Source of the DNA: Candidatus Dojkabacteria bacterium
GTDB taxonomy: Bacteria; Patescibacteriota; Dojkabacteria; SC72
Direction: 5' to 3'
Assembly (NCBI GenBank): GCA_035370505.1
Contig: DAOOVU010000001.1
Span: 17,109-81,108, forward strand
DNA: 64,000 nt
Part shown: one piece after another, positions 4,229 to 57,797 of the stretch
Position numbering within the stretch: position 1 is the stretch's first letter
How the letters are laid out: the number at the start of each line of letters is the position of its first letter
Translations under genes and position numbers: made by a program
Notes under the pieces: model-generated
Told to the model about the DNA's origin: nothing
Databases searched by the model: none
The model's input: only the letters and a program-made list of their open reading frames with translations

Positions 4229-5686
4229 ATGAATGATAAAAAAGTATATATAACTACGACTTTGCCGTATGTAAATGCAGAACCTCATATTGGTCATGCT
4301 TTAGAATTTGTTCAGGCAGATGCATCTGCTAGGTATTTTCGTCAAAAGTTAGGGAAGGAGAATGTTTTTTTTAATGTAGGCACTGATGAACATGGTTTGA
4401 AGATTTACAGGAAAGCTTTAGAAGAAAATATCTCTATTTATGATTTTGTTGATAAATATGCTCAAAGATTTGTTGATTATTGTAAATTATTTTTTGTTGA
4501 TTATGATTTTTTCTACAGAACTTCTTCCAAAGAGCATGTAAAGGTGGCTCAGGAATTTTGGAAGAGGTGTGCAGATCATGGAGATATTTACAAAAAGAAT
4601 TACAAGGGTTTGTACTGTGTTGGATGTGAGAGATTTATTACAGAAAAAGAATTAGTTGATGGAAAATGTCCAGATCATAATATTGAGCCAGAGCAAAGGG
4701 AGGAAGAAAATTACTTCTTCAGGTTGACATCATACAGAGAAAAACTTCTAAAATGGCTTAATGAAAATCCTGATTGTATCAAACCTAAATCTGCATTTGA
4801 TGAATTAAAGAAAATAATTTCTGAAATAGAGGATATAAGCATATCAAGAGTGAAAGAAAATCTTCCTTGGGGAATTGATGTCCCAGGAGATGATTCTCAA
4901 GTTATGTATGTTTGGTTTGATGCTTTAACGAATTATGTAGGAGCAGTAGGTTTTGGAGAGGATGAAAGGAAACTTATGGAATGGTGGAAAAATTCCGTTC
5001 AGTTTTTTGGGCCTGATAACCTTAGATTTCAGGGAGCTATATGGCAAGGCATGCTTATGTCAGGAAATCTTCCAAATACGAAGAAACTTCTTAGACATGG
5101 AATGGTTTTGGCATCAGATGGAAGAAAGATGTCAAAGTCTTTGGGTAATGTAGTTTCTCCGTTTGAAGAGGAGAAAAAATATGGAGCAGAAATAGTGAGA
5201 TTCTATTTGCTTGCAGGAATTTCAACATTTTTTGATTCTGCATACAGAGAAGAAGATCTTGTTAATATGTATAATGCAAGACTTGCTGATAATTATGGAA
5301 ATTTGCTTAATAGAGTAATACATTTAGCGAATTCTACAGGGGTAAAGATTAATGATGAAGAAAATGTAGAAAAAACTTTTCTTGATGAAGTTAACAAGTA
5401 TGAGTCTGAGATTAGTTCTTTGTATGAAGATTTCGAACTTTCTAGTGCGTTGGAAAAGGTAGATGAACTTGCTGATTTTGGGAATAAATACATTACGAAA
5501 GAGGAACCGTGGAGTAAGGGGTTAGAAAAAGGAAAGGTAGAAATAATACTAAACAATTTGAGTTATTTATTATCTGTTGTTACAAAGTTGTATTATCCTG
5601 CTATTCCAATCAGCAGTGCAAAAGCTGAAAAAGCGTTAAAGAATAGAGAAAAAATAATTCTTTTCAACAAACTTCAGCCTTTATGA
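4229..5686 (+). CDS. metG: Methionine--tRNA ligase
   Basis: N-terminal TTTLPYVNAEPHIGH (HIGH); Cys knuckle CVGCERF...CPDH; KMSKSLGN. Confidence 0.85.
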   Translation: MNDKKVYITTTLPYVNAEPHIGHALEFVQADASARYFRQKLGKENVFFNVGTDEHGLKIYRKALEENISIYDFVDKYAQRFVDYCKLFFVDYDFFYRTSSKEHVKVAQEFWKRCADHGDIYKKNYKGLYCVGCERFITEKELVDGKCPDHNIEPEQREEENYFFRLTSYREKLLKWLNENPDCIKPKSAFDELKKIISEIEDISISRVKENLPWGIDVPGDDSQVMYVWFDALTNYVGAVGFGEDERKLMEWWKNSVQFFGPDNLRFQGAIWQGMLMSGNLPNTKKLLRHGMVLASDGRKMSKSLGNVVSPFEEEKKYGAEIVRFYLLAGISTFFDSAYREEDLVNMYNARLADNYGNLLNRVIHLANSTGVKINDEENVEKTFLDEVNKYESEISSLYEDFELSSALEKVDELADFGNKYITKEEPWSKGLEKGKVEIILNNLSYLLSVVTKLYYPAIPISSAKAEKALKNREKIILFNKLQPL

Positions 5687-5718
5687 TATACTAAGATTGT
5701 ACAAACTAAAACTGCTCA

Positions 5719-6270
5719 ATGCTTACATCTAAAAAGGAACCACAATCAATAAACTTTTTGGAGCCTGTCTATTCTCCCTCGGATATTTGGTCGAAGGCCT
5801 ATATTTGGCTCACAGATGTTGGAAAGTATCTACTGATAGGTGTCGAGCTTGTCGTTTTGGGTGTGTTTTTTTCTAGGTTTATCCTTGATAAAAAGAATAA
5901 TGACTTAACAGAAGAAATAAATGATAAAACTGCTTTGCTATCAAATGAAAGTTGGAAGCAAAAAGATGCTTTATTTGGAAATTATCAATCTTTACTTACA
6001 GATGTTAGAAAAGTAAGAGAAAATCAAACAATAAATTCGACTATAATTAGTGACTTGATCAGTGGTATCCCCTCTCTTTTGTCTTTAGATAGTTTCTCTT
6101 TCACAGAAAATCGTGTATTTTTGAGCCTAACAAGTACGAGTTTCGAAACAGTGAAAAATTATGAAACAGCATTAAAGAATAATCCGGACTATAAAGATGT
6201 TACATTTAATATAGTAAAAGAAAAATCTGATATTGGAGTAAAGGTTACTTTTACTTTGACTGGTGAATAA
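5719..6270 (+). CDS. PilN-like bitopic membrane protein (type IV pilus/competence assembly)
   Basis: N-terminal SINFLEP resembles the conserved PilN INLLP motif, followed by a single TM (YLLIGVELVVLGVFF) and a periplasmic domain. Confidence 0.45.
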   Translation: MLTSKKEPQSINFLEPVYSPSDIWSKAYIWLTDVGKYLLIGVELVVLGVFFSRFILDKKNNDLTEEINDKTALLSNESWKQKDALFGNYQSLLTDVRKVRENQTINSTIISDLISGIPSLLSLDSFSFTENRVFLSLTSTSFETVKNYETALKNNPDYKDVTFNIVKEKSDIGVKVTFTLTGE

Positions 6271-31332: not shown

Positions 31333-32058
31333 ATGGATCTTACAGAAAGACAGAAGGAGATACTTTTGGCCATAATCCATGAATTTATGGAAGAGCCAGA
31401 AGAAGTTGGTTCTTTATCGCTCGTTGAAAAGTATAATCTAGGAGTAAGTTCGGCCACGATACGAAATGAAATGGTAAAATTGATGAGATTGGGACTGTTG
31501 GAAAAAAGTCATGTATCATCAGGAAGACTTCCTACAGACCAAGCCATCAGATTCTATGTTTCCGAAGTTCTTCGTGACGGGAAGCTAAATCCATTGATAT
31601 CTGTTGAAATTCGTCAAGGAATTTTTCGAGATAGATTTTCTAAAGATACGGTGATTAACTCGATTTTGGAAATAGTTTCTAAAGAGGCAGAGTCATTGGT
31701 TTTCATAATTTTGGATGAGGAAGTTAGATACTATGGAATGTCAAATATATTGAAATATGACGAGTTTAAAGATGTAGACAAAATAGCAACGATATTTGAC
31801 ATACTCGAGGACAAAAGCTTCCTTTTAAATCTGGCTGAAAAGTATTCTAGTTCAGGTGTTTCCCTGCTCATTGGAAGTGAGCTTGGAGTTGAGAATATGT
31901 CAGAGTGTGCTTTGGCTTTCACAAAAATTCCCTTCTGGGACACTGAAAAAGCATATGTAGGAATAATAGGATCTAAGAGAATGGATTATTCGAAAATAAT
32001 ACCTATACTGGATGAGGTCAGAAATTCACTGGTATCATCCATGGCTGGGTGGAATTAA
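31333..32058 (+). CDS. hrcA: Heat-inducible transcription repressor HrcA (short form)
   Basis: N-terminal winged HTH MDLTERQKEILLAIIHEF...SSATIRNEMVKLMRLGLLEKSHVSSGRLPTDQAIRFYV. At 241 aa it is shorter than typical HrcA. Confidence 0.8.
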   Translation: MDLTERQKEILLAIIHEFMEEPEEVGSLSLVEKYNLGVSSATIRNEMVKLMRLGLLEKSHVSSGRLPTDQAIRFYVSEVLRDGKLNPLISVEIRQGIFRDRFSKDTVINSILEIVSKEAESLVFIILDEEVRYYGMSNILKYDEFKDVDKIATIFDILEDKSFLLNLAEKYSSSGVSLLIGSELGVENMSECALAFTKIPFWDTEKAYVGIIGSKRMDYSKIIPILDEVRNSLVSSMAGWN

Positions 32059-42154: not shown

Positions 42155-42454
42155 ATGGGGAACTTTGTAAAGAGAACGGAGAATTTTGTATGTGAAAACT
42201 GTAAAACAGAGAATATTGGCGGTGGATACACGGACCATTGTTTTAAGTGTTTGTATTCAAAACATGTTGATATTAATCCAGGTGATAGGAACTGTAAGTG
42301 CCAAGGACTGATGAAGCCGGTATTTGTAGATATACATAATGGCAAGTATCGAATATATTATGAATGTGAAAAATGTGGCTACAAGCATAGAGTTATTGCT
42401 AGTAAGAATGATAATTTTGAAGAGATTGTAAAATTAACAGGATGTGGATATTAA
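42155..42454 (+). CDS. Cys-rich zinc-ribbon protein (four CxxC/CxC pairs)
   Basis: CENC...CFKC...CKC...CEKC; 99 aa; convergent with the XRE-S24 gene. Confidence 0.45.
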   Translation: MGNFVKRTENFVCENCKTENIGGGYTDHCFKCLYSKHVDINPGDRNCKCQGLMKPVFVDIHNGKYRIYYECEKCGYKHRVIASKNDNFEEIVKLTGCGY

Positions 42455-42993
42455 AACCTTATCTCTTGGGCAATGACTTTCCCAAGAAGTGTATCTTTCA
42501 TGCCTTTTGAAAATCTTTTGACAAAAAGTTTATTTTGATTCTGTACCAAAACTAGATCACCTGCAGAAATATGAGAATTTGGAGAGATATACAAACATCC
42601 AGCTTTAGTAAATTCGTAAGCCTCTGTGCTGTTGATTTCAATGATTGAAGTATCTATGACAAACGCATCTTGATCTTGCTGAATAATCCAGTCGGGACAT
42701 GAATAGAATAAATAAGTGTTTGATTTTGAAAATTTCTTCGGAATCTGGGTAAACAAAGGTACTCTGTTTCCATGAGAAAATGCAATATCATCAGAATCTC
42801 TCAACAAAGCTGACGGAGTTGTATCTAGAGCATCGGCTAAATTGTCTAATTGATTGAGTGGAGAGCTGACACCTCTTTCGTATCTAGATACCATTTCCCA
42901 TGTCTTCCCTATTTTATCAGCAAGCTCCTGTTGTGTAAGTTTCTTTTTCTGCCTATATATCTTTATATTCTCTCCAATATAATTATCTTTCAT
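42451..42993 (-). CDS. XRE-family HTH repressor with C-terminal S24 (LexA/CI-like) peptidase domain
   Basis: HTH IKIYRQKKKLTQQELADKIGKTWEMVSRYERG. The C-terminal region GDLVLVQNQNKLFVKRF matches the S24 Lys motif, with a candidate Ser in VIDTSII. Confidence 0.6.
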   Translation of the reverse strand: MKDNYIGENIKIYRQKKKLTQQELADKIGKTWEMVSRYERGVSSPLNQLDNLADALDTTPSALLRDSDDIAFSHGNRVPLFTQIPKKFSKSNTYLFYSCPDWIIQQDQDAFVIDTSIIEINSTEAYEFTKAGCLYISPNSHISAGDLVLVQNQNKLFVKRFSKGMKDTLLGKVIAQEIRF

Positions 42994-43113: not shown

Positions 43114-43251
43114 ATGAATGAAAAAGTCATAGTTTCTCAGATAGAAAAGCTACTCTCCAGCTATAACAAACTTATGGAATCAAACAGTTATAGTCATTCC
43201 AATATCAAAGAAATGAGAGAAATCCTAAAGAAAATACAAAAATCATTATGA
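43114..43251 (+). CDS. Possible small ORF (45 aa)
   Basis: MNEKVIVSQIEKLLSSYNKLMESNSYSHSNIKEMREILKKIQKSL; lies between the repressor and the metallopeptidase genes; no SD; weak. Confidence 0.2.
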   Translation: MNEKVIVSQIEKLLSSYNKLMESNSYSHSNIKEMREILKKIQKSL

Positions 43252-43701
43252 AATTACTTTTATCCAGTTCTCTTTAAGCCATTTGTCTGCTAATTTTTGC
43301 TCCTCGAGTAATCCTCTTTTTTTCAACTCTTTATTAATAATATTTCCCTTGTGTGGTTTGGAAAATTGCTTTTTCAATGGAGAATTAAAGCCATGAGTAT
43401 AATGACATAACTCATGAGCTATTGTTGCTTTTATTACATACTCTGGAACTACCTCATTTCGAAAATATCTAGTTATTGTTATTATAGAAATACTTTTGTT
43501 ATCTTGAACGATATATTCATCATATTTCTTTCTCATTAAACCCTTGATCTTACTTTCATTGTGAGCCAACGATATACATCCAAGCTGCCTTTTAGAATAT
43601 TTTCCAAACTTAATTAGCACAAAATTCTTCCTAGGAACATCACAGAAATAGTTGTCCCATAAGTCATAAAGTAGATTTTCTAAAAAATCATTATCTCTCA
43701 T
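43246..43701 (-). CDS. HExxH zinc metallopeptidase, SprT / DUF45(YgjP) / ImmA-like
   Basis: ATIAHELCHYTHG motif followed by a ...KWLKENW C-terminus; 151 aa. Confidence 0.5.
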   Translation of the reverse strand: MRDNDFLENLLYDLWDNYFCDVPRKNFVLIKFGKYSKRQLGCISLAHNESKIKGLMRKKYDEYIVQDNKSISIITITRYFRNEVVPEYVIKATIAHELCHYTHGFNSPLKKQFSKPHKGNIINKELKKRGLLEEQKLADKWLKENWIKVIS

Positions 43702-52307: not shown

Positions 52308-52573
52308 TATCCCTTAAATGGGTTTTCTAATTTTAGAGCTGATATAGCTGCTTCCATCTGTGGAGATTGTATTCCCCTAGCTATAGCTCTATGCATTCTT
52401 TTTTGTTCTGCCTTGTTAAGGAGATATAGATCACTCTCCTTTTTTTGTTGTGGTATTGAATTTGTATCTATAGCATGTGTTATGAGGTAGTTTTCTTCTT
52501 GAATTGTATTTGTGTTATTGTTCTGCTGATTGTCCATTATCGTCATTATTATTCTCTTCTGGATAGCTTTCAA
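52304..52573 (-). CDS. Small hypothetical protein (89 aa) at the distal end of the VirB4 operon
   Basis: Overlaps the VirB4 3' end by 59 nt; N/Q-rich; no motif. Confidence 0.3.
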   Translation of the reverse strand: MKAIQKRIIMTIMDNQQNNNTNTIQEENYLITHAIDTNSIPQQKKESDLYLLNKAEQKRMHRAIARGIQSPQMEAAISALKLENPFKGY

Positions 52574-55145
52574 CTATTCCCTGAGGAGTTAAATGTCCTT
52601 TCCCTTTTTGTATCTTCATTCTGTCTGATACGACCTGTCCAGAGATTGTGCTGTCTTCGATCTTTTGAAGAAAATCTTTTTGTTGTTGGTATCCTCCTGA
52701 ATTCAATTGCATCTCTTGTTGCTTTAGTCTTTCCTCAAGTTCTTTCTGATATTGTTCTCTTTCCTCTTCTAAGAATGTTTTTTCTGTTTCTTTCTTTTCT
52801 ACTGCATGTTTTATAATTTCTTCTTGTCTTGCAATCTTTCCGTCTTTCATAGGTTTTTGTTGTGTTGGAGTATCAAATACTTGTGCTAATTCCTCCATAG
52901 TTCTTGTGTCAGGCTGTCCCTTTCTTTCAGCAAGTTTTTCAAGGTCTCTTGGATCTGAGGTTATCAACTCATGTTCTGATGTGCTAGAGAGGACTTGGAT
53001 TCCAACATGGTTTGATCCTGCGAAGAATAGTCCTTGTCCTTTATCACAGTTCAAAAGGAAATTTTTTTCTCCATCAGAGAGATTAAAGACTTGCTGTAGT
53101 TTATCTGCGGCGGTAGGGCTTTGCATCATAAGCATTTGCAGAGAGGAGTTGGCAATAATTGCCTTCCCCATGTCATTGTTTAGGAAGTCATTTACATCCT
53201 GTGTAATCGTTGATAGGCCAAGATAGTATTTCCTTGCTCTTTTTGCTATGGAGTACATAAATTTTGCAGAATCTTCAGATTGCATCATATACCATGCCTC
53301 ATCTACTATAAGTATTCTTCTTTTTCTGTCTTTTCTTACTTTTGTCCATATAAAATCGAGCATGAGATACATTGCTAATGGTTTTAGTTCTTCCTGCAGG
53401 TCACGAATACTAAAAACAGTAAGAGGGTTGTCAATTTCAAAATTACTTGCTTCGTTGAATACTCCTGCCCCGCTTCCTATGATGTATCTTTCTAGTCTTC
53501 TTGCCAATCCGTGTGCCTCTTCTTCTGCCATTCCTTTTAATACTTTGTAGAGATCTTCTAAAAGTGGAGGCTGTTTACTTTGTGTAGCTGGATCGTATGT
53601 TATGCCTTTCTCTCTGTAAGTTAGTATGAGAGCTCTGTCAAGTATGGATTCTTCTATATTAGTGAGATTTCTGTATAGTACTTTGAAGAAGCCATGTAGA
53701 GAAAGTAATTTCATTCTTAGCTCGTCATCTCCCTCTTCTGTAGATGATGCCAATTCGAATGGGTTCATTTTATTTCCCTTATCCTGTGAGAATGATATAT
53801 ATGAACCATTAACAGCAGATGCTAGGTTTTCGTATTCTCTTTCTGGGTCAATAATAATTATTTCGGTTCCGAGCATTAAACTTCTCAAAGCTTCTAACTT
53901 TACAAAATAACTTTTTCCAGCTCCTGACTTTGCAAACACAACGGTATTTGCATTCTCAAGTTCAAACCTATCAAAAATCACAAGGCTTTTGTTATGCATA
54001 TTTAATCCGTACATTATTCCATGATCCATAGTTAATTCTGATGTGACGAATGGGAATGTAGTTGCTAAGGATGTCGTATCCATATTTCTTGTAATGTACA
54101 AGTTGTCAATTCCAAGAGGTTGTGTGCTTATAAATCCTTGCTCCTGTTGAAGGGTTGCTGGTTTTGCTGTCACATTTATAGCTGCTAGAGTGGATACTAC
54201 ATTCCTAGATATTTTTTCTAGTTCATCCTTACTTTTTGCATATATTGTAATGTACATCGTGAAATGGAAGAATTTTTCTGTACCTTCAGCTATTGAATCT
54301 TGCAACTGTTGTGCATCGGAGAGAGCAACTTTTAGTGATGGATCTATTACTTTCCTTTCTTCCATTTGTGTATACATTGTTGCTTCCATTTCACCTATTT
54401 TCTTTTTTAATTTCTCAAGTATTGTTTTAGAATCAACTGGGTAATAGAAAGTACTTATTCTGAGGGAATGTTCAAAATTAATAATAGGAGAAAGCCAATT
54501 TGGCCCAACAAATCTAGGATACCCACTTACAAACAGGGTTCTAAAATAGTAATCTCCCATTTGAAGGTGGTTGAAATCGACTTCTAGATCTATTGGAGCA
54601 ATGATATCTTGTAAAGAGATATTAACATCTTCACCAATTATAGATGGAATTACTGAAGAATCTTCTTGAGGAGCTTCTTCTTGTGTTTTATTCTCAGGTG
54701 TTGGAGTCGTGGATTTACTATCCTTGTTTACTTGTGTGGAGATTGTATCAAGAAACTGAAAGAGTGGATTTTTGTTTTGTTTTGCAGGTGTACTAGTTTG
54801 TTGTGTTGTTTGTGAGGAAGTAGTATTTTCCTTTTCGTCCTTGTTTTGTGTCGGCTGTGGAGTAACCTTTATGTTGTTTTTCTTGTTATATTGACCTGCA
54901 AAATAATCAAGAATCTTTAGAAGTGGATTCTTTTTTGGTTTTGTTTTCTCTTCATCAGCAGGGAATGGATCTAAATATTTAGCCCTATTATCATTTGGGT
55001 CTTTTTGCTGTGAAGTTTTTATTGGGTTATTGATAGGATTTTTCTGTAAAGTTGATATTGGGTCTTTATTTAATGTTTTAGTTAAGTCATTCTCAAATGT
55101 TCTGTTGTAATTATTTTTGCTTATGTCTTCCATACTATTCTTCAT
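52515..55145 (-). CDS. virB4: VirB4/TrbE-family type IV secretion ATPase (Gram-positive type) with N-terminal low-complexity extension
   Basis: Walker A VVFAKSGAGKSYFVKL; Walker B ILIVDEAWYMM; a CagE/TrbE-type N-domain (...YYFRTLFVSGYPRFVGPNWL...) preceded by ~170 aa of T/Q/P/N-rich sequence with two copies of a K(K/N)NPL(L/F)x(I/F)LD motif. Confidence 0.85.
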   Translation of the reverse strand: MKNSMEDISKNNYNRTFENDLTKTLNKDPISTLQKNPINNPIKTSQQKDPNDNRAKYLDPFPADEEKTKPKKNPLLKILDYFAGQYNKKNNIKVTPQPTQNKDEKENTTSSQTTQQTSTPAKQNKNPLFQFLDTISTQVNKDSKSTTPTPENKTQEEAPQEDSSVIPSIIGEDVNISLQDIIAPIDLEVDFNHLQMGDYYFRTLFVSGYPRFVGPNWLSPIINFEHSLRISTFYYPVDSKTILEKLKKKIGEMEATMYTQMEERKVIDPSLKVALSDAQQLQDSIAEGTEKFFHFTMYITIYAKSKDELEKISRNVVSTLAAINVTAKPATLQQEQGFISTQPLGIDNLYITRNMDTTSLATTFPFVTSELTMDHGIMYGLNMHNKSLVIFDRFELENANTVVFAKSGAGKSYFVKLEALRSLMLGTEIIIIDPEREYENLASAVNGSYISFSQDKGNKMNPFELASSTEEGDDELRMKLLSLHGFFKVLYRNLTNIEESILDRALILTYREKGITYDPATQSKQPPLLEDLYKVLKGMAEEEAHGLARRLERYIIGSGAGVFNEASNFEIDNPLTVFSIRDLQEELKPLAMYLMLDFIWTKVRKDRKRRILIVDEAWYMMQSEDSAKFMYSIAKRARKYYLGLSTITQDVNDFLNNDMGKAIIANSSLQMLMMQSPTAADKLQQVFNLSDGEKNFLLNCDKGQGLFFAGSNHVGIQVLSSTSEHELITSDPRDLEKLAERKGQPDTRTMEELAQVFDTPTQQKPMKDGKIARQEEIIKHAVEKKETEKTFLEEEREQYQKELEERLKQQEMQLNSGGYQQQKDFLQKIEDSTISGQVVSDRMKIQKGKGHLTPQGIVESYPEENNNDDNGQSAEQ

Positions 55146-55775: not shown

Positions 55776-56600
55776 CTACAAAGCATTAATCTTAATTGGT
55801 AATCTATTATTTATTTTATTCATTATTATTTCAACAGAGGGAAATTCATATTGAGGGTGCTGGAAATCTATTGTGTAAGTTCCTGGCTCCCACTCCTTGT
55901 TAGTTAGGAAATAGCCGTTTGGGCCAGTTTTGCTTGCATAAAGGATTTTTCCGTTGGAATCCCTTAGATATGCTACAACATTTGGGATAGGTTTAAAATC
56001 TTTAGTACAGAGCCAGCAGTTAATATTGCCGGGAAGGTTTTCTAAACCTTTTGTTGAGAATTGATAATTTGCTAGGTTTTCATCGGTAATAATCAGTTTT
56101 GTTGGATCAATTTGTGTGGTCTGCTGAGGAGCAGTCTGCAGAATGTCTAAATTATCTTCAGTTTTTTCATCAGCTTTCTCAGTGGTTATTGTATCTAAAC
56201 CTCCTCCTATTATCTTTTTTGTATTTTCTTTCTGATCTTTATTAATTAATTGACCATCTTTTGTTGGTTTCAGAAGTGGCTTTGTTCTCGCTTCCTTCAT
56301 TTGTTTGTTTAGCCATGTTCTTTGTGTTGGATTATTTATAGCGGTTATATAACTTTGTATGAATTTATCAGCATCTTGTCCATTTATTGGGACAAGTCCA
56401 AGAACAATTCCTATGATTGAGCTGACTATACATATTGGGATACCTAAAATTGCAGGCATAATGTCTGATACCACTAAATACACCATTAGTCCGCCGAATC
56501 CAACTCCTATGGCGAGGTATGTAAACTCTTTTAATGTGAATTTAGTAAATAACTTAAATTCAACATCTAAAACATTTTGCGGTATAGCATGTTGTCTCAT
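55776..56600 (-). CDS. PrgI/VirB3-like two-TM protein with C-terminal beta-rich extracytoplasmic domain
   Basis: N-terminal ...VEFKLFTKFTLKEFTYLAIGVGFGGLMVYLVV... (PrgI-family pattern), a second TM, then a C-terminal domain with PGTYTI-type beta-sandwich signature; first gene of the minus-strand operon. Confidence 0.5.
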   Translation of the reverse strand: MRQHAIPQNVLDVEFKLFTKFTLKEFTYLAIGVGFGGLMVYLVVSDIMPAILGIPICIVSSIIGIVLGLVPINGQDADKFIQSYITAINNPTQRTWLNKQMKEARTKPLLKPTKDGQLINKDQKENTKKIIGGGLDTITTEKADEKTEDNLDILQTAPQQTTQIDPTKLIITDENLANYQFSTKGLENLPGNINCWLCTKDFKPIPNVVAYLRDSNGKILYASKTGPNGYFLTNKEWEPGTYTIDFQHPQYEFPSVEIIMNKINNRLPIKINAL

Positions 56601-56666
56601 ATAGGCAGATTCTACTAAAGTTTAGCAGAATATTAAAGGAAAGAGTATAAGGATTATAATTAGTAA

Positions 56667-56685
56667 GGTTCTGCCTAGGTAGAAG
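56667..56685. repeat. Palindromic repeat copy 1: GGTTCTGCCTAGGTAGAAG
   Basis: CCTAGG core flanked by inverted GTTCT/AGAAC arms. Confidence 0.5.
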
Positions 56686-56816
56686 ATGGAAGAAAAAAAT
56701 AAAGAAATGGAGCAATTAATTTATATTTTCTGTGATTTTCGATCATATTAGCATCACATACTTAATATGTGTTTTTGTTCTAAATAAGTGCTTTCTTTGT
56801 GATTATCCATGTATTA

Positions 56817-56834
56817 GGTAGAACCTAGGTTAAG
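56817..56834. repeat. Palindromic repeat copy 2: GGTAGAACCTAGGTTAAG
   Basis: CCTAGG core with AGAAC/GTT arms (AACCTAGGTT is a perfect palindrome). Confidence 0.5.
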
Positions 56835-56967
56835 CCTTGTATTAAACTTGGGTGCATTTCTGCTAGAAATTTTGTTTCTAAAGGTTCTATTTTAGAAGTA
56901 CAACTAAATGTTTTTGTATACTCAAAAAACTTCAAGCCAAGAGGTTTTCTTTATGTTTTGTAGATTG

Positions 56968-56994
56968 TGGGTTCTACCTAGGCTGAACCTAGCC
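56968..56994. repeat. Palindromic repeat copy 3: TGGGTTCTACCTAGGCTGAACCTAGCC
   Basis: GTTCTACCTAGG half-site plus a second GAACCTAG copy; ends 6 nt before the -10 box at 57000-57008. Confidence 0.5.
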
Positions 56995-56999
56995 TTACT

Positions 57000-57008
57000 T
57001 GGTATAAT
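57000..57008 (+). promoter_or_regulatory. Extended -10 element TGGTATAAT, 6 nt before the ATG at 57015
   Basis: TGGTATAAT at 57000-57008 with the ATG at 57015 implies a leaderless or near-leaderless transcript. Confidence 0.3.
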
Positions 57009-57014
57009 CAATAT

Positions 57015-57797
57015 ATGAATATATCGGAGAGAATAGAGGAGCTTAGAGTTTTTCGATCGTTGATGGGTATCGATTTATCCGCCTCTGATATTAGCAGAAT
57101 TTGGGGTTCTCAGTACTCTAAAAAAGCGAGAAATCAACCACCTGATAGATGTAATCCTGTAATTGAAGAAAAAATTCAAATTTTACAAAAAAATCTAAAC
57201 CACTTCCTCCTTTTGGATAAAGTCAAGTTTATAGGTATTTCAGGCTCTGTAGGTGCCGGTTTTGCTAAAAGGGAGGATGATATTGATCTCTTCATAGTAG
57301 TTGAAGATGACTTTATGTGGGTGTATAGGTTGTACTTAGAATTATCAAATTTATTTAATGGGAAAGTTCGTCAAAAGAAACATAAAAATGATGTAAAAGA
57401 TAAATTTTGTGTAAATCTAATAGCTGAGGAACGTGGGGTTGTATTTGATAATGACATCTTTAATTTTCATGAATTAATGTTTTTGAAACCTGTGTATAAC
57501 AAAGAGTATATCTATCAGATTTACCTTAAAAATGAATGGTTGTTTGATGATTGGGGAATTAAGCCGTGTTCAAAACAAGAGAAATATGTGAAAAAGAATA
57601 ATGTAATTAAAAAAGTATTTAATGAAACCTGCTTCTTAATACAGTTGTCATTCATGTTTATCTCAAATCATGCTCCAGATCTCCATAGATTAGTGAGAAA
57701 CAACAATATCGGTAGGATAGAATTTTTCCCATGTGAATTCAAATTGAAGAAAATAAAGGAATACAAAAGAAAATTGGCATCAGCCCAAATTGTTTAA
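57015..57797 (+). CDS. Pol-beta-superfamily nucleotidyltransferase domain protein (260 aa)
   Basis: GISGSVGAGFAKREDDIDLFIVVEDD matches the GS...DxD minimal NTase motif; the C-terminal ~150 aa are of unknown fold. Confidence 0.5.
   Translation: MNISERIEELRVFRSLMGIDLSASDISRIWGSQYSKKARNQPPDRCNPVIEEKIQILQKNLNHFLLLDKVKFIGISGSVGAGFAKREDDIDLFIVVEDDFMWVYRLYLELSNLFNGKVRQKKHKNDVKDKFCVNLIAEERGVVFDNDIFNFHELMFLKPVYNKEYIYQIYLKNEWLFDDWGIKPCSKQEKYVKKNNVIKKVFNETCFLIQLSFMFISNHAPDLHRLVRNNNIGRIEFFPCEFKLKKIKEYKRKLASAQIV

Follow-up and report, generated by a model that had tools for sequence, protein, structure and literature searches.

Most descriptions of REP/RAYT systems come from Proteobacteria, and classical REPs are present in tens to hundreds of copies per genome. 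The palindrome-associated transposable elements of haloarchaea are an example of MITE derivatives of IS200/IS605. REP or BIME sequences associated with a RAYT (TnpA_REP) gene, also known as REPtrons, occur in E. coli, Pseudomonas, Stenotrophomonas, and Marinomonas (PMC3333891, PMC8266576, PMC5581495), and hairpin-forming REP doublets are termed REPINs (Bertels and Rainey 2011, PMC3116915). In a full-text literature search, no paper was found that mentioned RAYT or REPIN together with Patescibacteria.

Here, we analysed a 64-kb stretch of Candidatus Dojkabacteria DNA (hereafter, the window), in which a divergent spacer of 414 nt (56601–57014) separates a PrgI-family gene on the minus strand from a Polbeta-type nucleotidyltransferase gene on the plus strand. 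We estimate a probability of roughly 0.8 that this spacer harbours a non-autonomous REP/RAYT-like transposable element of ~329 nt, whose palindromes are candidate recognition boxes and probably do not constitute an operator array.

Palindromes of the spacer and layout of the element

The PrgI-family gene is the first gene of a T4SS-like operon, and is followed by a 211-aa ORF and then by a VirB4/TraG-P-loop ATPase. The two Pfam matches of the nucleotidyltransferase both fell just short of their cutoffs (PF18765, 26.8 bits vs 26.9; PF01909, 20.0 bits vs 21). The 64-kb window contains 8 occurrences of CCTAGG (7.25 expected), three of which were located inside the spacer (56674, 56824, and 56977), corresponding to a Poisson P of 5.6e-6 with the rate taken from the remaining window. 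The three CCTAGG-centred motifs that a first-pass annotation had pointed out are therefore real and clustered (P about 6e-6), and their reported spacing of ~150 bp also held, the start-to-start distances being 150 and 153 nt. A restriction-site-centred motif, suggested at the same time, was without support, as CCTAGG was neither depleted nor enriched in the window. When the 18-mer GTTCTNCCTAGGNAGAAC was searched with up to 3 mismatches in the 64-kb window, matches were confined to the spacer except for a weak 3-mismatch one at 43624 (0.2 expected).

The copies were not uniform. GTTCT/AGAAC arms, previously ascribed to every copy, were present on copy 1 only (GGTTCTGCCTAGGTAGAAG, 56667–56685) and absent from the other two: copy 2 is a palindrome of another type with the arms reversed (56817–56836), and copy 3 spans 56970–56989 and is followed by TAGCCT. 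Copy 3 had also been described as ending 6 nt before the -10 box; TATAAT actually lies at 57003–57008, 8 nt past that end, or 5 nt if the TGG of the extended -10 box is counted. All three belong to one non-coding element, as its left, middle, and right boxes; with its flanks and neighbouring genes, this element is arranged as follows ("full-length locus" denotes the transposase locus described below).

55776–56600, minus strand: PrgI-family gene, which opens the T4SS-like operon (Pfam PF12666; HOV34433.1, named PrgI family protein, Candidatus Dojkabacteria).
56601–56647, minus strand: predicted ancestral PrgI proximal promoter and leader, outside the element; 96–100% conserved in all relatives down to 67% PrgI identity, in any upstream context.
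56648–56666, no strand: left flank, external to the element; it forms the inverted repeat I1 with the right flank 56996–57014.
56667–56995, minus strand (transposase-sense orientation): whole non-autonomous element, ~329 nt, supported by the nhmmer profile, alignments A1 and A3, and its absence from the L034 and L036 spacers.
56667–56686, no strand: outer palindrome 1, GGTTCTGCCTAGGTAGAAGA (copy 1); its counterpart is the palindrome in the 3' end of the transposase ORF of the full-length locus.
56687–56816, no strand: interior A, at the position occupied by the transposase ORF in the full-length locus.
56817–56836, no strand: middle palindrome, GGTAGAACCTAGGTTAAGCC (copy 2); its counterpart is the palindrome 66 nt upstream of the L045 transposase start codon.
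56837–56969, minus strand: interior B; its homologue in the full-length locus is the stretch separating the two palindromes that precede the transposase gene.
56970–56995, no strand: outer palindrome 3, GGTTCTACCTAGGCTGAACC, with the conserved tail TAGCCT (copy 3); its counterpart is the palindrome farthest upstream of the transposase gene.
56996–57014, plus strand: right flank with the extended -10 box TGGTATAAT (57000–57008), read from the sequence.
57015–57797, plus strand: Polbeta-type nucleotidyltransferase gene (HOV34434.1; Pfam PF18765 and PF01909, both sub-cutoff).

An nhmmer profile of the element, built from 6 copies including the window's own, gave a single match in the 64-kb window (56662–56999). 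The element was present at the same site in a sister species (86% PrgI identity; L068, L069, L070, and L033), where outer palindromes 1 and 3 showed 85 and 87% identity to their window counterparts, respectively, and the middle palindrome was a perfect 22-nt palindrome. Interior A showed 51% identity between the window and the sister species in the multiple alignment and 66% in the pairwise alignment. No similarity was detectable between interior A and the transposase ORF (local alignment score of 19.5 vs 17.7 ± 2.2 for shuffles), and tblastn of the transposase gave no match in it. Interior B was identical to the reverse complement of L045 5070–5201 at 95 of 133 positions (71%, z 9–10), and also holds a small TTCTA-TTT-TAGAA hairpin box (56881–56898).

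The element orientation initially taken from the MAFFT alignments A1 and A2 was overturned by blastn and pairwise tests, which matched the right half of the window element, on the minus strand, to the region upstream of the transposase gene. Because the element is oppositely oriented, the VLPRLN match between a 21-aa ORF (56954–57019) and the transposase C-terminus is the palindrome read in one frame. This ORF has AAGAGG as a ribosome-binding site and overlaps the start of the nucleotidyltransferase gene by ATGA, but it is not conserved in the sister species and was discarded. Dyad symmetry of the window element was limited to its outer ~70 nt, and none was detected in the interiors of five copies (z 0.1–1.5); a single long hairpin formed by the whole element was ruled out, as the symmetry is limited to the ends.

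Just beyond the left end, a promoter-like match (TTAATA-16-TAGAAT) precedes the PrgI gene, with the ATG 8 nt past the -10 box, and 56601–56647 is predicted to function as the PrgI promoter. At the right end, 6 nt separate the extended -10 box from the nucleotidyltransferase ATG (57015); with the transcription start deduced from the box, the mRNA is predicted to be leaderless. TGnTATAAT lies at an equal distance in the sister species, and L036 has a plain TATAAT 6 nt before the ATG. CCTTACT flanks the element on both sides, in inverted orientation, in the window and the sister species. Sequence resembling the left flank was found in the sister species and was not found at other element copies, and comparison of five element junctions gave no clear common target sequence. 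The arms TTCTRC...GYAGAA are common to the element and a palindrome in the PrgI core promoter, with 2 sites in the window against 0.21 expected; the arms are not retained in L038 and L040, so that this match is probably a coincidence.

Orthologous spacers and dispersed copies

In relatives at 75–76% PrgI identity, the gene order was kept, and the spacer measured 78 nt (L034) or 100 nt (L036) with no motif. The motifs were absent from L034, L036, L038, and L040, representing orthologous spacers at 75%, 73%, and 67% PrgI identity, and the PrgI core promoter (47 nt) was fully conserved in all four. The window, L034, and L036 kept the first ~47 nt next to PrgI as well as a TATAAT 6–8 nt before the nucleotidyltransferase ATG. 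Subtracting the element from the window spacer (414 - 329) leaves 85 nt, compared with 78–100 nt for the empty-site spacers of the relatives. Judging from these sequence comparisons, the element is an insertion into an ancestral divergent spacer of ~85 nt that took place in a recent ancestor. No presence/absence polymorphism was found at this site among 14 strain contigs, which gives no sign of recent mobility.

The first-pass annotation had favoured an operator array, in which the palindromes would be double-stranded DNA sites of a dimeric factor co-regulating the T4SS-like operon and the nucleotidyltransferase. Twofold-symmetric sites of 18–20 bp next to the -10 boxes of divergent genes do resemble LexA- or XRE-type arrays; both outer copies are closely followed by outward-facing TATAAT boxes, the window and its sister species agree clearly better in the palindromic boxes than in the interiors, and a symmetric dimer would select for symmetry-keeping compensatory changes equally with a hairpin. 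We nevertheless consider this explanation very unlikely, as the palindromes are missing from the orthologous spacers of the relatives despite the conserved core promoter, and are thus not conserved at the orthologous promoters. Moreover, the same boxes, with the same spacing and a homologous spacer, recur as a mobile module at functionally unrelated genes and around the transposase gene, and one copy lies within a coding region. The window encodes an XRE-type HTH protein (42451–42993) and HrcA (31333–32058), and no copy of the motif was found at either gene; the XRE-type gene, which had been put forward as a candidate regulator, was set aside, with no motif nearby and no Pfam S24 domain at E <= 0.001.

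A distance of 293–305 nt separates the outer palindromes of the window, L046/L049/L056, L050, and L057. For the window, L046, L050, and L057, the middle box was identified as well, and common boxes are visible in alignment A1. The three-box layout was observed in at least 3 unrelated Dojkabacteria intergenic regions, including at least 2 loci within the same genome. All short copies were intergenic, mostly between divergent genes, and the element boxes adjoined unrelated genes, namely SpoIID-like, UvrD-like, GT2 glycosyltransferase, and transposase genes, with both orientations relative to the neighbouring genes. Copy number was 1 per 64 kb, with about 4–5 loci seen in an exact-match scan that missed known positives. 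The nhmmer profile also matched transposase loci outside its training set (E 1e-17 to 1e-23). The consensus boxes contain ...CCTAG-GTAG-AACC..., and some middle boxes read GTAG-AACCTAGGTT; GTAG pairs with CTAC inside the stem, and other middle boxes have GTGT, GTTA, or GTAT instead. The alternative also offered at the outset, that the motifs are remnants of a small palindromic repeat element, was therefore essentially right: the motif is dispersed and also occurs inside a gene, the transposase ORF, at its 3' end, a pattern that the first-pass annotation had itself named as one that would refute a specific operator.

NCBI accessions, together with the PLS56 tag, place the window and the transposase locus in one MAG with further loci that carry the element. 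HOV34432–34436 are window proteins, for which the locus tags are PLS56_00325 and PLS56_00335. The transposase, HOV34583, is numbered between HOV34582 and HOV34584; of the neighbouring genes, the SpoIID one has the accession HOV34754 and the one at L050 the tag PLS56_00605. GCA_046128215.1 likewise includes the window and transposase loci, but its contig numbering is suggestive of a bulk metagenome assembly, so that this is no proof of a common genome and the HOV accessions and the PLS56 tag are the better link. Separately, a scan of genome contigs with TTCTACCTAGGCNGAACC returned 17 matches, none from Patescibacteria. These were mostly on gut 'Bacilli' MAG contigs, an unrelated lineage, with the 20-mer upstream of rpsL, and were treated as coincidence, the count being in the estimated chance range. 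A scan of viral contigs gave no match.

Conserved boxes separated by variable spacers of constant length would also be expected of a structured non-coding RNA gene, with the boxes as helices of an RNA of ~330 nt, and the single-strand fold of the element was better than shuffled (z -4.2). This signal came from the terminal inverted repeats alone. Rfam, tRNA, and terminator scans found nothing, with no Rfam match even at E <= 1, and no promoter or terminator signals bracketed the element. Considering also that both orientations occur relative to the neighbours and that half of the element has its homologue just upstream of the transposase gene, an RNA gene can hardly be what the spacer contains.

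The transposase locus and its co-evolution with the palindromes

In the full-length locus (L045, L053, and L042), a palindrome and, 152 nt on, a middle palindrome precede a 169-aa Y1_Tnp gene, the 3' end of which contains the third palindrome. In L045, the palindromes are at 5050, 5202, and 5711, and the gene spans 5268–5777. The protein matched Pfam PF01797 (E 6e-9), and its sole NCBIfam match was NF047646, the REP-associated tyrosine transposase (E 6e-13 and 4e-16), with scores of 49.0 and 59.2 bits that are below the 80-bit cutoff; the NCBIfam IS200-family model gave no match. The HUH motif (H63-Y-H65) and Y124xxxN128P129 were invariant in all five homologues. In a phmmer search against PDB sequences, the transposase had no match, and fold comparison alone succeeded: the best Foldseek hit was 4ER8, the E. 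coli RAYT bound to a REP hairpin, with 2A6M and 2F4F also at the top. The TnpA folds of IS608, IS200, and ISDra2 matched with E about 1e-5, IS608 and IS200 almost as well as RAYT. In JGI, the protein is labelled RayT.

The syntenic locus (UvrD, G5, Y1, TPR, and EF-G) was found in all of the at least 17 contigs read, which fall into three lineages with 100, 84, and 63% amino acid identity. The arms of the middle box showed compensatory changes between lineages. Even in the 63% lineage, the spacings were retained (154 and 506 nt), and the palindromes GGTTTAACYTAGGTTAAACC showed compensatory changes. Taken together, these features suggest that the same Candidatus Dojkabacteria genome likely encodes the enzyme that moves such repeats.

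These data also bear on whether the locus is a selfish IS200/IS605 insertion sequence with MITE derivatives, in which case the transposase would be an autonomous TnpA and the window copy a decaying passenger. The locus shares with that family the Y1 transposase fold, subterminal hairpins at both ends, and palindromes that bracket the gene as in IS200, with about 730 nt from the first palindrome to the transposase stop codon. Furthermore, the short derivatives are few, retain both ends without the gene or an ORF remnant (alignment A2), and are inserted intergenically with no obvious target-site duplication, and the RAYT model score is sub-cutoff. However, all of the contigs read, from three lineages, carried the gene at the one syntenic locus, a pattern typical of a vertically inherited single-copy gene. 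The third palindrome is inside the ORF and the downstream gene begins 10 nt past the stop codon, leaving no room for a separate right end. In addition, there is no tnpB, the IS200-family model is unmatched, no conserved target tetranucleotide was definable from the five junctions, and the window copy shows conservation, not decay, at its ends. We therefore regard an IS200/IS605 insertion sequence as improbable, somewhat less so than an operator array.

Comparison with REP/RAYT systems and implications

The preferred reading, a non-autonomous REP/RAYT-like element, is in line with several properties of the described systems. The Dojkabacteria gene encodes a predicted HUH/Y1 enzyme at a single, apparently vertically inherited locus; the palindromes that border it are also dispersed at intergenic sites of the same genome, and variation in the palindromes accompanies variation in the enzyme from one lineage to the next. 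RAYT proteins provide both the nearest solved structure and the only NCBIfam match. The differences are that the protein is below the RAYT model cutoff, that the host belongs to Patescibacteria (CPR) and is not a proteobacterium, and that the dispersed unit is ~330 nt long with three palindromes, as opposed to a 20–40-nt REP or a short doublet. Copy number also appears low, the GTAG of the consensus boxes is located inside the stem instead of at the 5' foot of the hairpin, and one palindrome is within the 3' end of the transposase gene. As with REPINs, the unit is non-autonomous, exceeds a single REP, has inverted terminal palindromes, is homologous to the flank of the RAYT gene, and persists at an orthologous site across speciation. 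It differs in having three palindromes of two types and about three times the length, and since its interiors lack dyad symmetry, it is unlike a REPIN in not being one long hairpin.

By analogy with the IS200/IS605 and RAYT mechanism, the palindromes would fold into hairpins on single-stranded DNA, and the Y1 transposase, acting in trans from its own locus, would bind, cut, and rejoin them, an activity that may have spread the element to other loci. In the spacer, the insertion would have put about 330 nt between the PrgI and nucleotidyltransferase promoters, which had been back to back, and would have spared the conserved PrgI core promoter at one end and the extended -10 box of the nucleotidyltransferase gene at the other, each just outside the element. 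A putative protein-binding palindrome would now occupy the expected -35 region of the nucleotidyltransferase gene. In CPR bacteria, T4SS-like operons are suspected of contributing to an episymbiotic or DNA-uptake lifestyle; the element sits directly against the promoters of such an operon, which would lend interest to any effect on its expression.

Between the window and the sister species, the boxes were 84% conserved and the interiors 51–65%. Conservation of boxes above interiors is not needed by a dead passenger copy, so that some in-place function or host-level role of the element is possible. Among strains, none of 10 variable sites was located in the boxes, which is not significant (p about 0.17, our own estimate). 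A more far-reaching and rather doubtful proposal is that the streamlined Dojkabacteria maintain a vertically inherited REPIN/RAYT-like system with an unusual unit of ~330 nt and three palindromes, and that individual copies, the one in this spacer included, are under purifying selection, with palindromes co-opted at promoters as protein-binding or structural elements. If this were true, the initial regulatory idea would be partly right, with regulation exerted through the transposase or a host factor.

For annotation, the locus illustrates that a promoter-proximal cluster of palindromes can mimic an operator array and that comparison with relatives reveals a mobile insertion. For the family, it would fit the view of REP/RAYT systems as long-term residents: an ultra-small CPR genome with its transposase at a single locus, cognate palindromes that appear to co-evolve with this enzyme, and an orthologous non-autonomous copy with conserved boxes and a decaying interior. 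Dojkabacteria may thereby offer a compact natural system for testing whether such systems are residents or short-lived parasites.

Palindromes in the divergent spacer

The window has a G+C content of 33%, and its exact protein matches were NCBI HOV34432.1-HOV34436.1, labelled as a Dojkabacteria MAG (WS6, Patescibacteria; anaerobic digesters). The palindromes and their neighbours are arranged as follows.

52515-55145, minus strand: VirB4/TraG-P-loop ATPase
Between the ATPase and the PrgI-family gene, minus strand: 211-aa ORF
55776-56600, minus strand: PrgI-family gene, on one side of the spacer
56601-57014: divergent spacer, 414 nt
56667: copy 1, GGTTCTGCCTAGGTAGAAG
56817: copy 2, GGTAGAACCTAGGTTAAGCC
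56970: copy 3, GGTTCTACCTAGGCTGAACC, followed by TAGCCT
57015-57797, plus strand: Polbeta-type nucleotidyltransferase gene, on the other side of the spacer
Beyond the nucleotidyltransferase gene, minus strand: recF, then lepA

CCTAGG is ordinary overall in the 64-kb window (8 sites versus 7.25 expected), and three of the eight fall in the 414-nt spacer (P = 5.6e-6). When as many as 3 mismatches were allowed, the 18-mer consensus matched only within the spacer and at one weak site, 43624. The cluster reported in the first-pass annotation is real; its three-palindrome description slightly idealised the arms, and copy 2 is a different type of palindrome from copies 1 and 3. The weak site (ATTCTTCCTAGGAACATC, 43624-43641, 3 mismatches) lies near the 5' end of an ORF (43246-43701), approximately 630 nt from an XRE-type HTH gene (42451-42993), and is probably a chance match.

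Insertion and dispersal of the element

The 414-nt spacer was present in all 14 same-species contigs, where none of its 10 variable sites lay within the palindromic boxes, a distribution that was not significant. The spacers of relatives are compared below.

PrgI/nucleotidyltransferase spacer in related contigs
Sister species (L033, L068, L069, L070): PrgI identity 86%, nucleotidyltransferase 69-72%; gene order kept; element at the same position; spacer 340 nt in L068 and 409 nt in L069
L034: PrgI identity 76%; gene order kept; spacer 78 nt; no motif
L036: PrgI identity 75%; gene order kept; spacer 100 nt; no motif
L038: PrgI identity 73%; upstream genes different, spacer not comparable; no motif
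L040: PrgI identity 67%; upstream genes different, spacer not comparable; no motif

Subtracting the element (56667-56995, 329 nt) from the spacer leaves 85 nt, the ancestral size, and this comparison of spacers shows that the element entered by insertion. The sister species, a separate MAG (tag PLD77), contains two strains distinguished by a 69-nt deletion in the element of L068 (L068 3650-4016 versus L069 1027-1462); the boxes are kept, showing that the interior is dispensable, and both strains encode the identical nucleotidyltransferase protein. The initial interpretation of the palindromes as an operator array for a dimeric regulator is unsupported, because the motif is absent from all four more distant relatives although the PrgI-proximal ~47 nt are kept. 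Since gene order breaks between the 75% and 73% PrgI relatives, the boundary upstream of the T4SS-like operon is prone to rearrangement. A 76-aa rve_3 integrase fragment was also observed immediately upstream of PrgI in the 73% relative (L038 5708-5938).

Metagenome contigs were scanned with the exact pattern GGTTCTACCTAGGNNGAACC, and the matches formed two classes, namely gut 'Bacilli' contigs and digester or activated-sludge contigs with 34-36% G+C. The copy counts are lower bounds, as the scan missed the pattern-bearing L008 and L014 (JGI Ga0255342_1003881 and Ga0116255_10000270). In every digester or sludge contig without a transposase gene, a second palindrome lay 293-305 nt from the first, and in L046, L050, and L057 a middle box could be placed between the two, a layout equal to that of the window (56667, 56817, and 56970). 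The flanking genes were unrelated to those of the window:

L046, L049, L056: DAGK and a SpoIID-like gene, with the element 84 nt upstream of the latter
L050: VTT-domain gene and UvrD-like helicase, divergent
L057: PPDK and GT2 glycosyltransferase, divergent

In a multiple alignment, the boxes were common to the copies and the interiors had diverged. An nhmmer profile based on six copies, including that of the window, matched the 64-kb window once, at 56662-56999, and detected no additional degenerate copies there. The alternative already raised by the first-pass annotation, a small palindromic repeat element, is therefore right, as the same layout recurs at unrelated loci.

Several of these loci appear to share one genome. 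The window proteins HOV34432-34436 bear the locus tags PLS56_00325 and PLS56_00335; HOV34583.1, a member of the transposase cluster, sits between HOV34582.1 and HOV34584.1, the exact neighbours in the transposase contig L045; and HOV34754.1 is the exact SpoIID-like protein of L049. From the shared PLS56 prefix and the contiguous accession range, we infer that the window element, the transposase locus, and the SpoIID-upstream element lie in a single MAG. The L050 and L057 loci probably belong to it as well, given that HOV34480.1 (PLS56_00605) clusters with the L050 neighbour and HOV34737.1 is a cluster member resembling the L057 GT39 protein.

Regarding the gut 'Bacilli' class, many MAG contigs carry an identical 20-mer, GGTTCTACCTAGG(CA/TA/TG)GAACC, approximately 60 nt upstream of rpsL-rpsG-fusA (L017 3040-3160; also L016-L021, L024, L026, L027, L030, L032, L041, L043, L044, L048, L051, L052, L054, L055, and L058). 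A second hairpin (ACACACATCCTGGTGT) and a ribosome-binding site come after it, variants of the 20-mer preserve RNA pairing, and the region had no Rfam match. It may be an undescribed S12 operon leader; because of the database size, its identity with the Dojkabacteria sequence is probably a coincidence.

Relationship to a Y1 transposase

The transposase locus is arranged as follows in L045 and L053, and also in L042 from a second species (76% nucleotide identity across the locus).

5050: first palindrome
5202: middle-type palindrome
5268-5777: 169-aa Y1_Tnp gene (Pfam)
5711-5730: third palindrome, within the 3' end of the gene

The inter-palindrome segment upstream of the L045 gene has its homologue in the right half of the window element (minus strand, copy 3 to copy 2), with identity at 95 of 133 positions (z 9-10; blastn and pairwise tests), and the first half of the element profile matched the transposase loci, which were left out of the model, at E values between 1e-17 and 1e-23. 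Because of this homology, copies 3, 2, and 1 read on the minus strand as the palindrome farthest upstream of the transposase gene, that nearest its start, and that in its 3' end, respectively. At the ORF position the window element has approximately 130 nt instead, in which similarity to the gene was undetectable.

The sole NCBIfam match of the 169-aa protein was NF047646, REP-associated tyrosine transposase (RAYT), with E values of 6e-13 and 4e-16 and scores of 49 and 59 bits, under the 80-bit cutoff. The protein is named RayT at JGI and Dojkabacteria transposase at NCBI, and the HUH and YxxxNP motifs were invariant among its homologues. A PDB sequence search gave no match; the best structural match of its AlphaFold model (pLDDT 69) was 4ER8, the E. 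coli RAYT with a REP hairpin (E 5e-6, rmsd 3.3 A), followed by the IS608, IS200, and ISDra2 TnpA proteins. Every contig read (3 + 6 + 8 places) had the gene at one and the same locus (UvrD, G5 on the minus strand, Y1, TPR, EF-G), and these contigs represent three lineages, with amino-acid identities of 100/99%, 84%, and 63%. The three palindromes of the 63% lineage retain their spacing (154 and 506 nt, versus 152 and 509 nt) and read GGTTTAACYTAGGTTAAACC, with paired changes that preserve symmetry; the middle-box arms also show compensatory variation between lineages. Together, these features are hallmarks of RAYT/REP systems (PMC5581495, PMC3333891, PMC8266576), and the window feature is a non-autonomous REP/RAYT-like element. 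By analogy with IS200/IS605 and RAYT chemistry, the palindromes would fold as hairpins on single-stranded DNA, and the Y1 enzyme would bind, cleave, and rejoin them in trans.

Some features fit less well. The Dojkabacteria unit greatly exceeds a REPIN in length, dyad symmetry is missing from its interiors, the GTAG of its boxes lies within the stem rather than at the 5' foot as in REPs, and copy number seems low. A fixed passenger copy would also need no such constraint as is seen in the boxes between the window and L069:

Outer palindrome 1: 85% identity
Middle box: 81% identity
Outer palindrome 3 plus tail: 87% identity
Interiors: 51-53% identity (multiple alignment), 64-66% (pairwise)

The difference between boxes and interiors was significant with either alignment (Fisher p = 8e-8 and 6e-4, respectively). 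Any one of four causes would account for it: persisting binding by a protein, service as a source copy, gene conversion, or a function for the host.

Promoters flanking the element

The ~47 nt preceding the PrgI start (56601-56647) were 96-100% conserved in every relative down to 67% PrgI identity, regardless of the DNA further upstream. This stretch contains a promoter-like match, TTAATA-16-TAGAAT, and the position of the ATG, 8 nt past its -10 box, suggests a leaderless mRNA. It also contains a palindrome, ATTCTACTAAAGTTTAGCAGAAT, that is a better candidate than the element boxes for a true operator of the T4SS-like operon. The pattern TTCTRC-N(2-12)-GYAGAA occurred twice in the 64-kb window versus 0.21 expected, in this promoter palindrome (56610-56630) and in the adjoining element palindrome (56669-56684); the sharing is probably a coincidence, because L038 and L040 do not retain the arms.

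On the other side, an extended -10 box, TGGTATAAT, precedes the nucleotidyltransferase gene, whose ATG lies 6 nt downstream. TGnTATAAT ends 6 nt before the ATG in the window (57000-57017) and the sister species (L069 ~1430-1450), neither of which has a ribosome-binding site for this gene, and L034 and L036 retain a TATAAT box at 6-8 nt from the ATG, plain and at 6 nt in the latter (5900-5925). The mRNA is probably leaderless in the window species, and the same arrangement suggests this for the sister species and L036; L034 differs in having GGAGG between the box and the ATG. The 17 nt just beyond both element ends (CCTTACTnnnTATAATC) are mutual inverted repeats in the window and sister species only, with an outward-facing TATAAT in each flank (56651-56666, GATTATAATTAGTAAGG; 56996-57009, CCTTACTTGGTATAATC), and are absent from the other element copies.

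After insertion, the core promoter of PrgI and the extended -10 box of the nucleotidyltransferase gene would still lie just outside the element, with copy 1 approximately 30 nt upstream of the predicted PrgI -35 hexamer (TTAATA, 56631-56636), and copy 3 would now sit where the nucleotidyltransferase promoter has its -35 region. The CPR host, the three-palindrome unit of ~330 nt, and the sub-threshold RAYT homologue set the element apart from known REP/RAYT systems, and the conserved boxes may have gained a function at these promoters.
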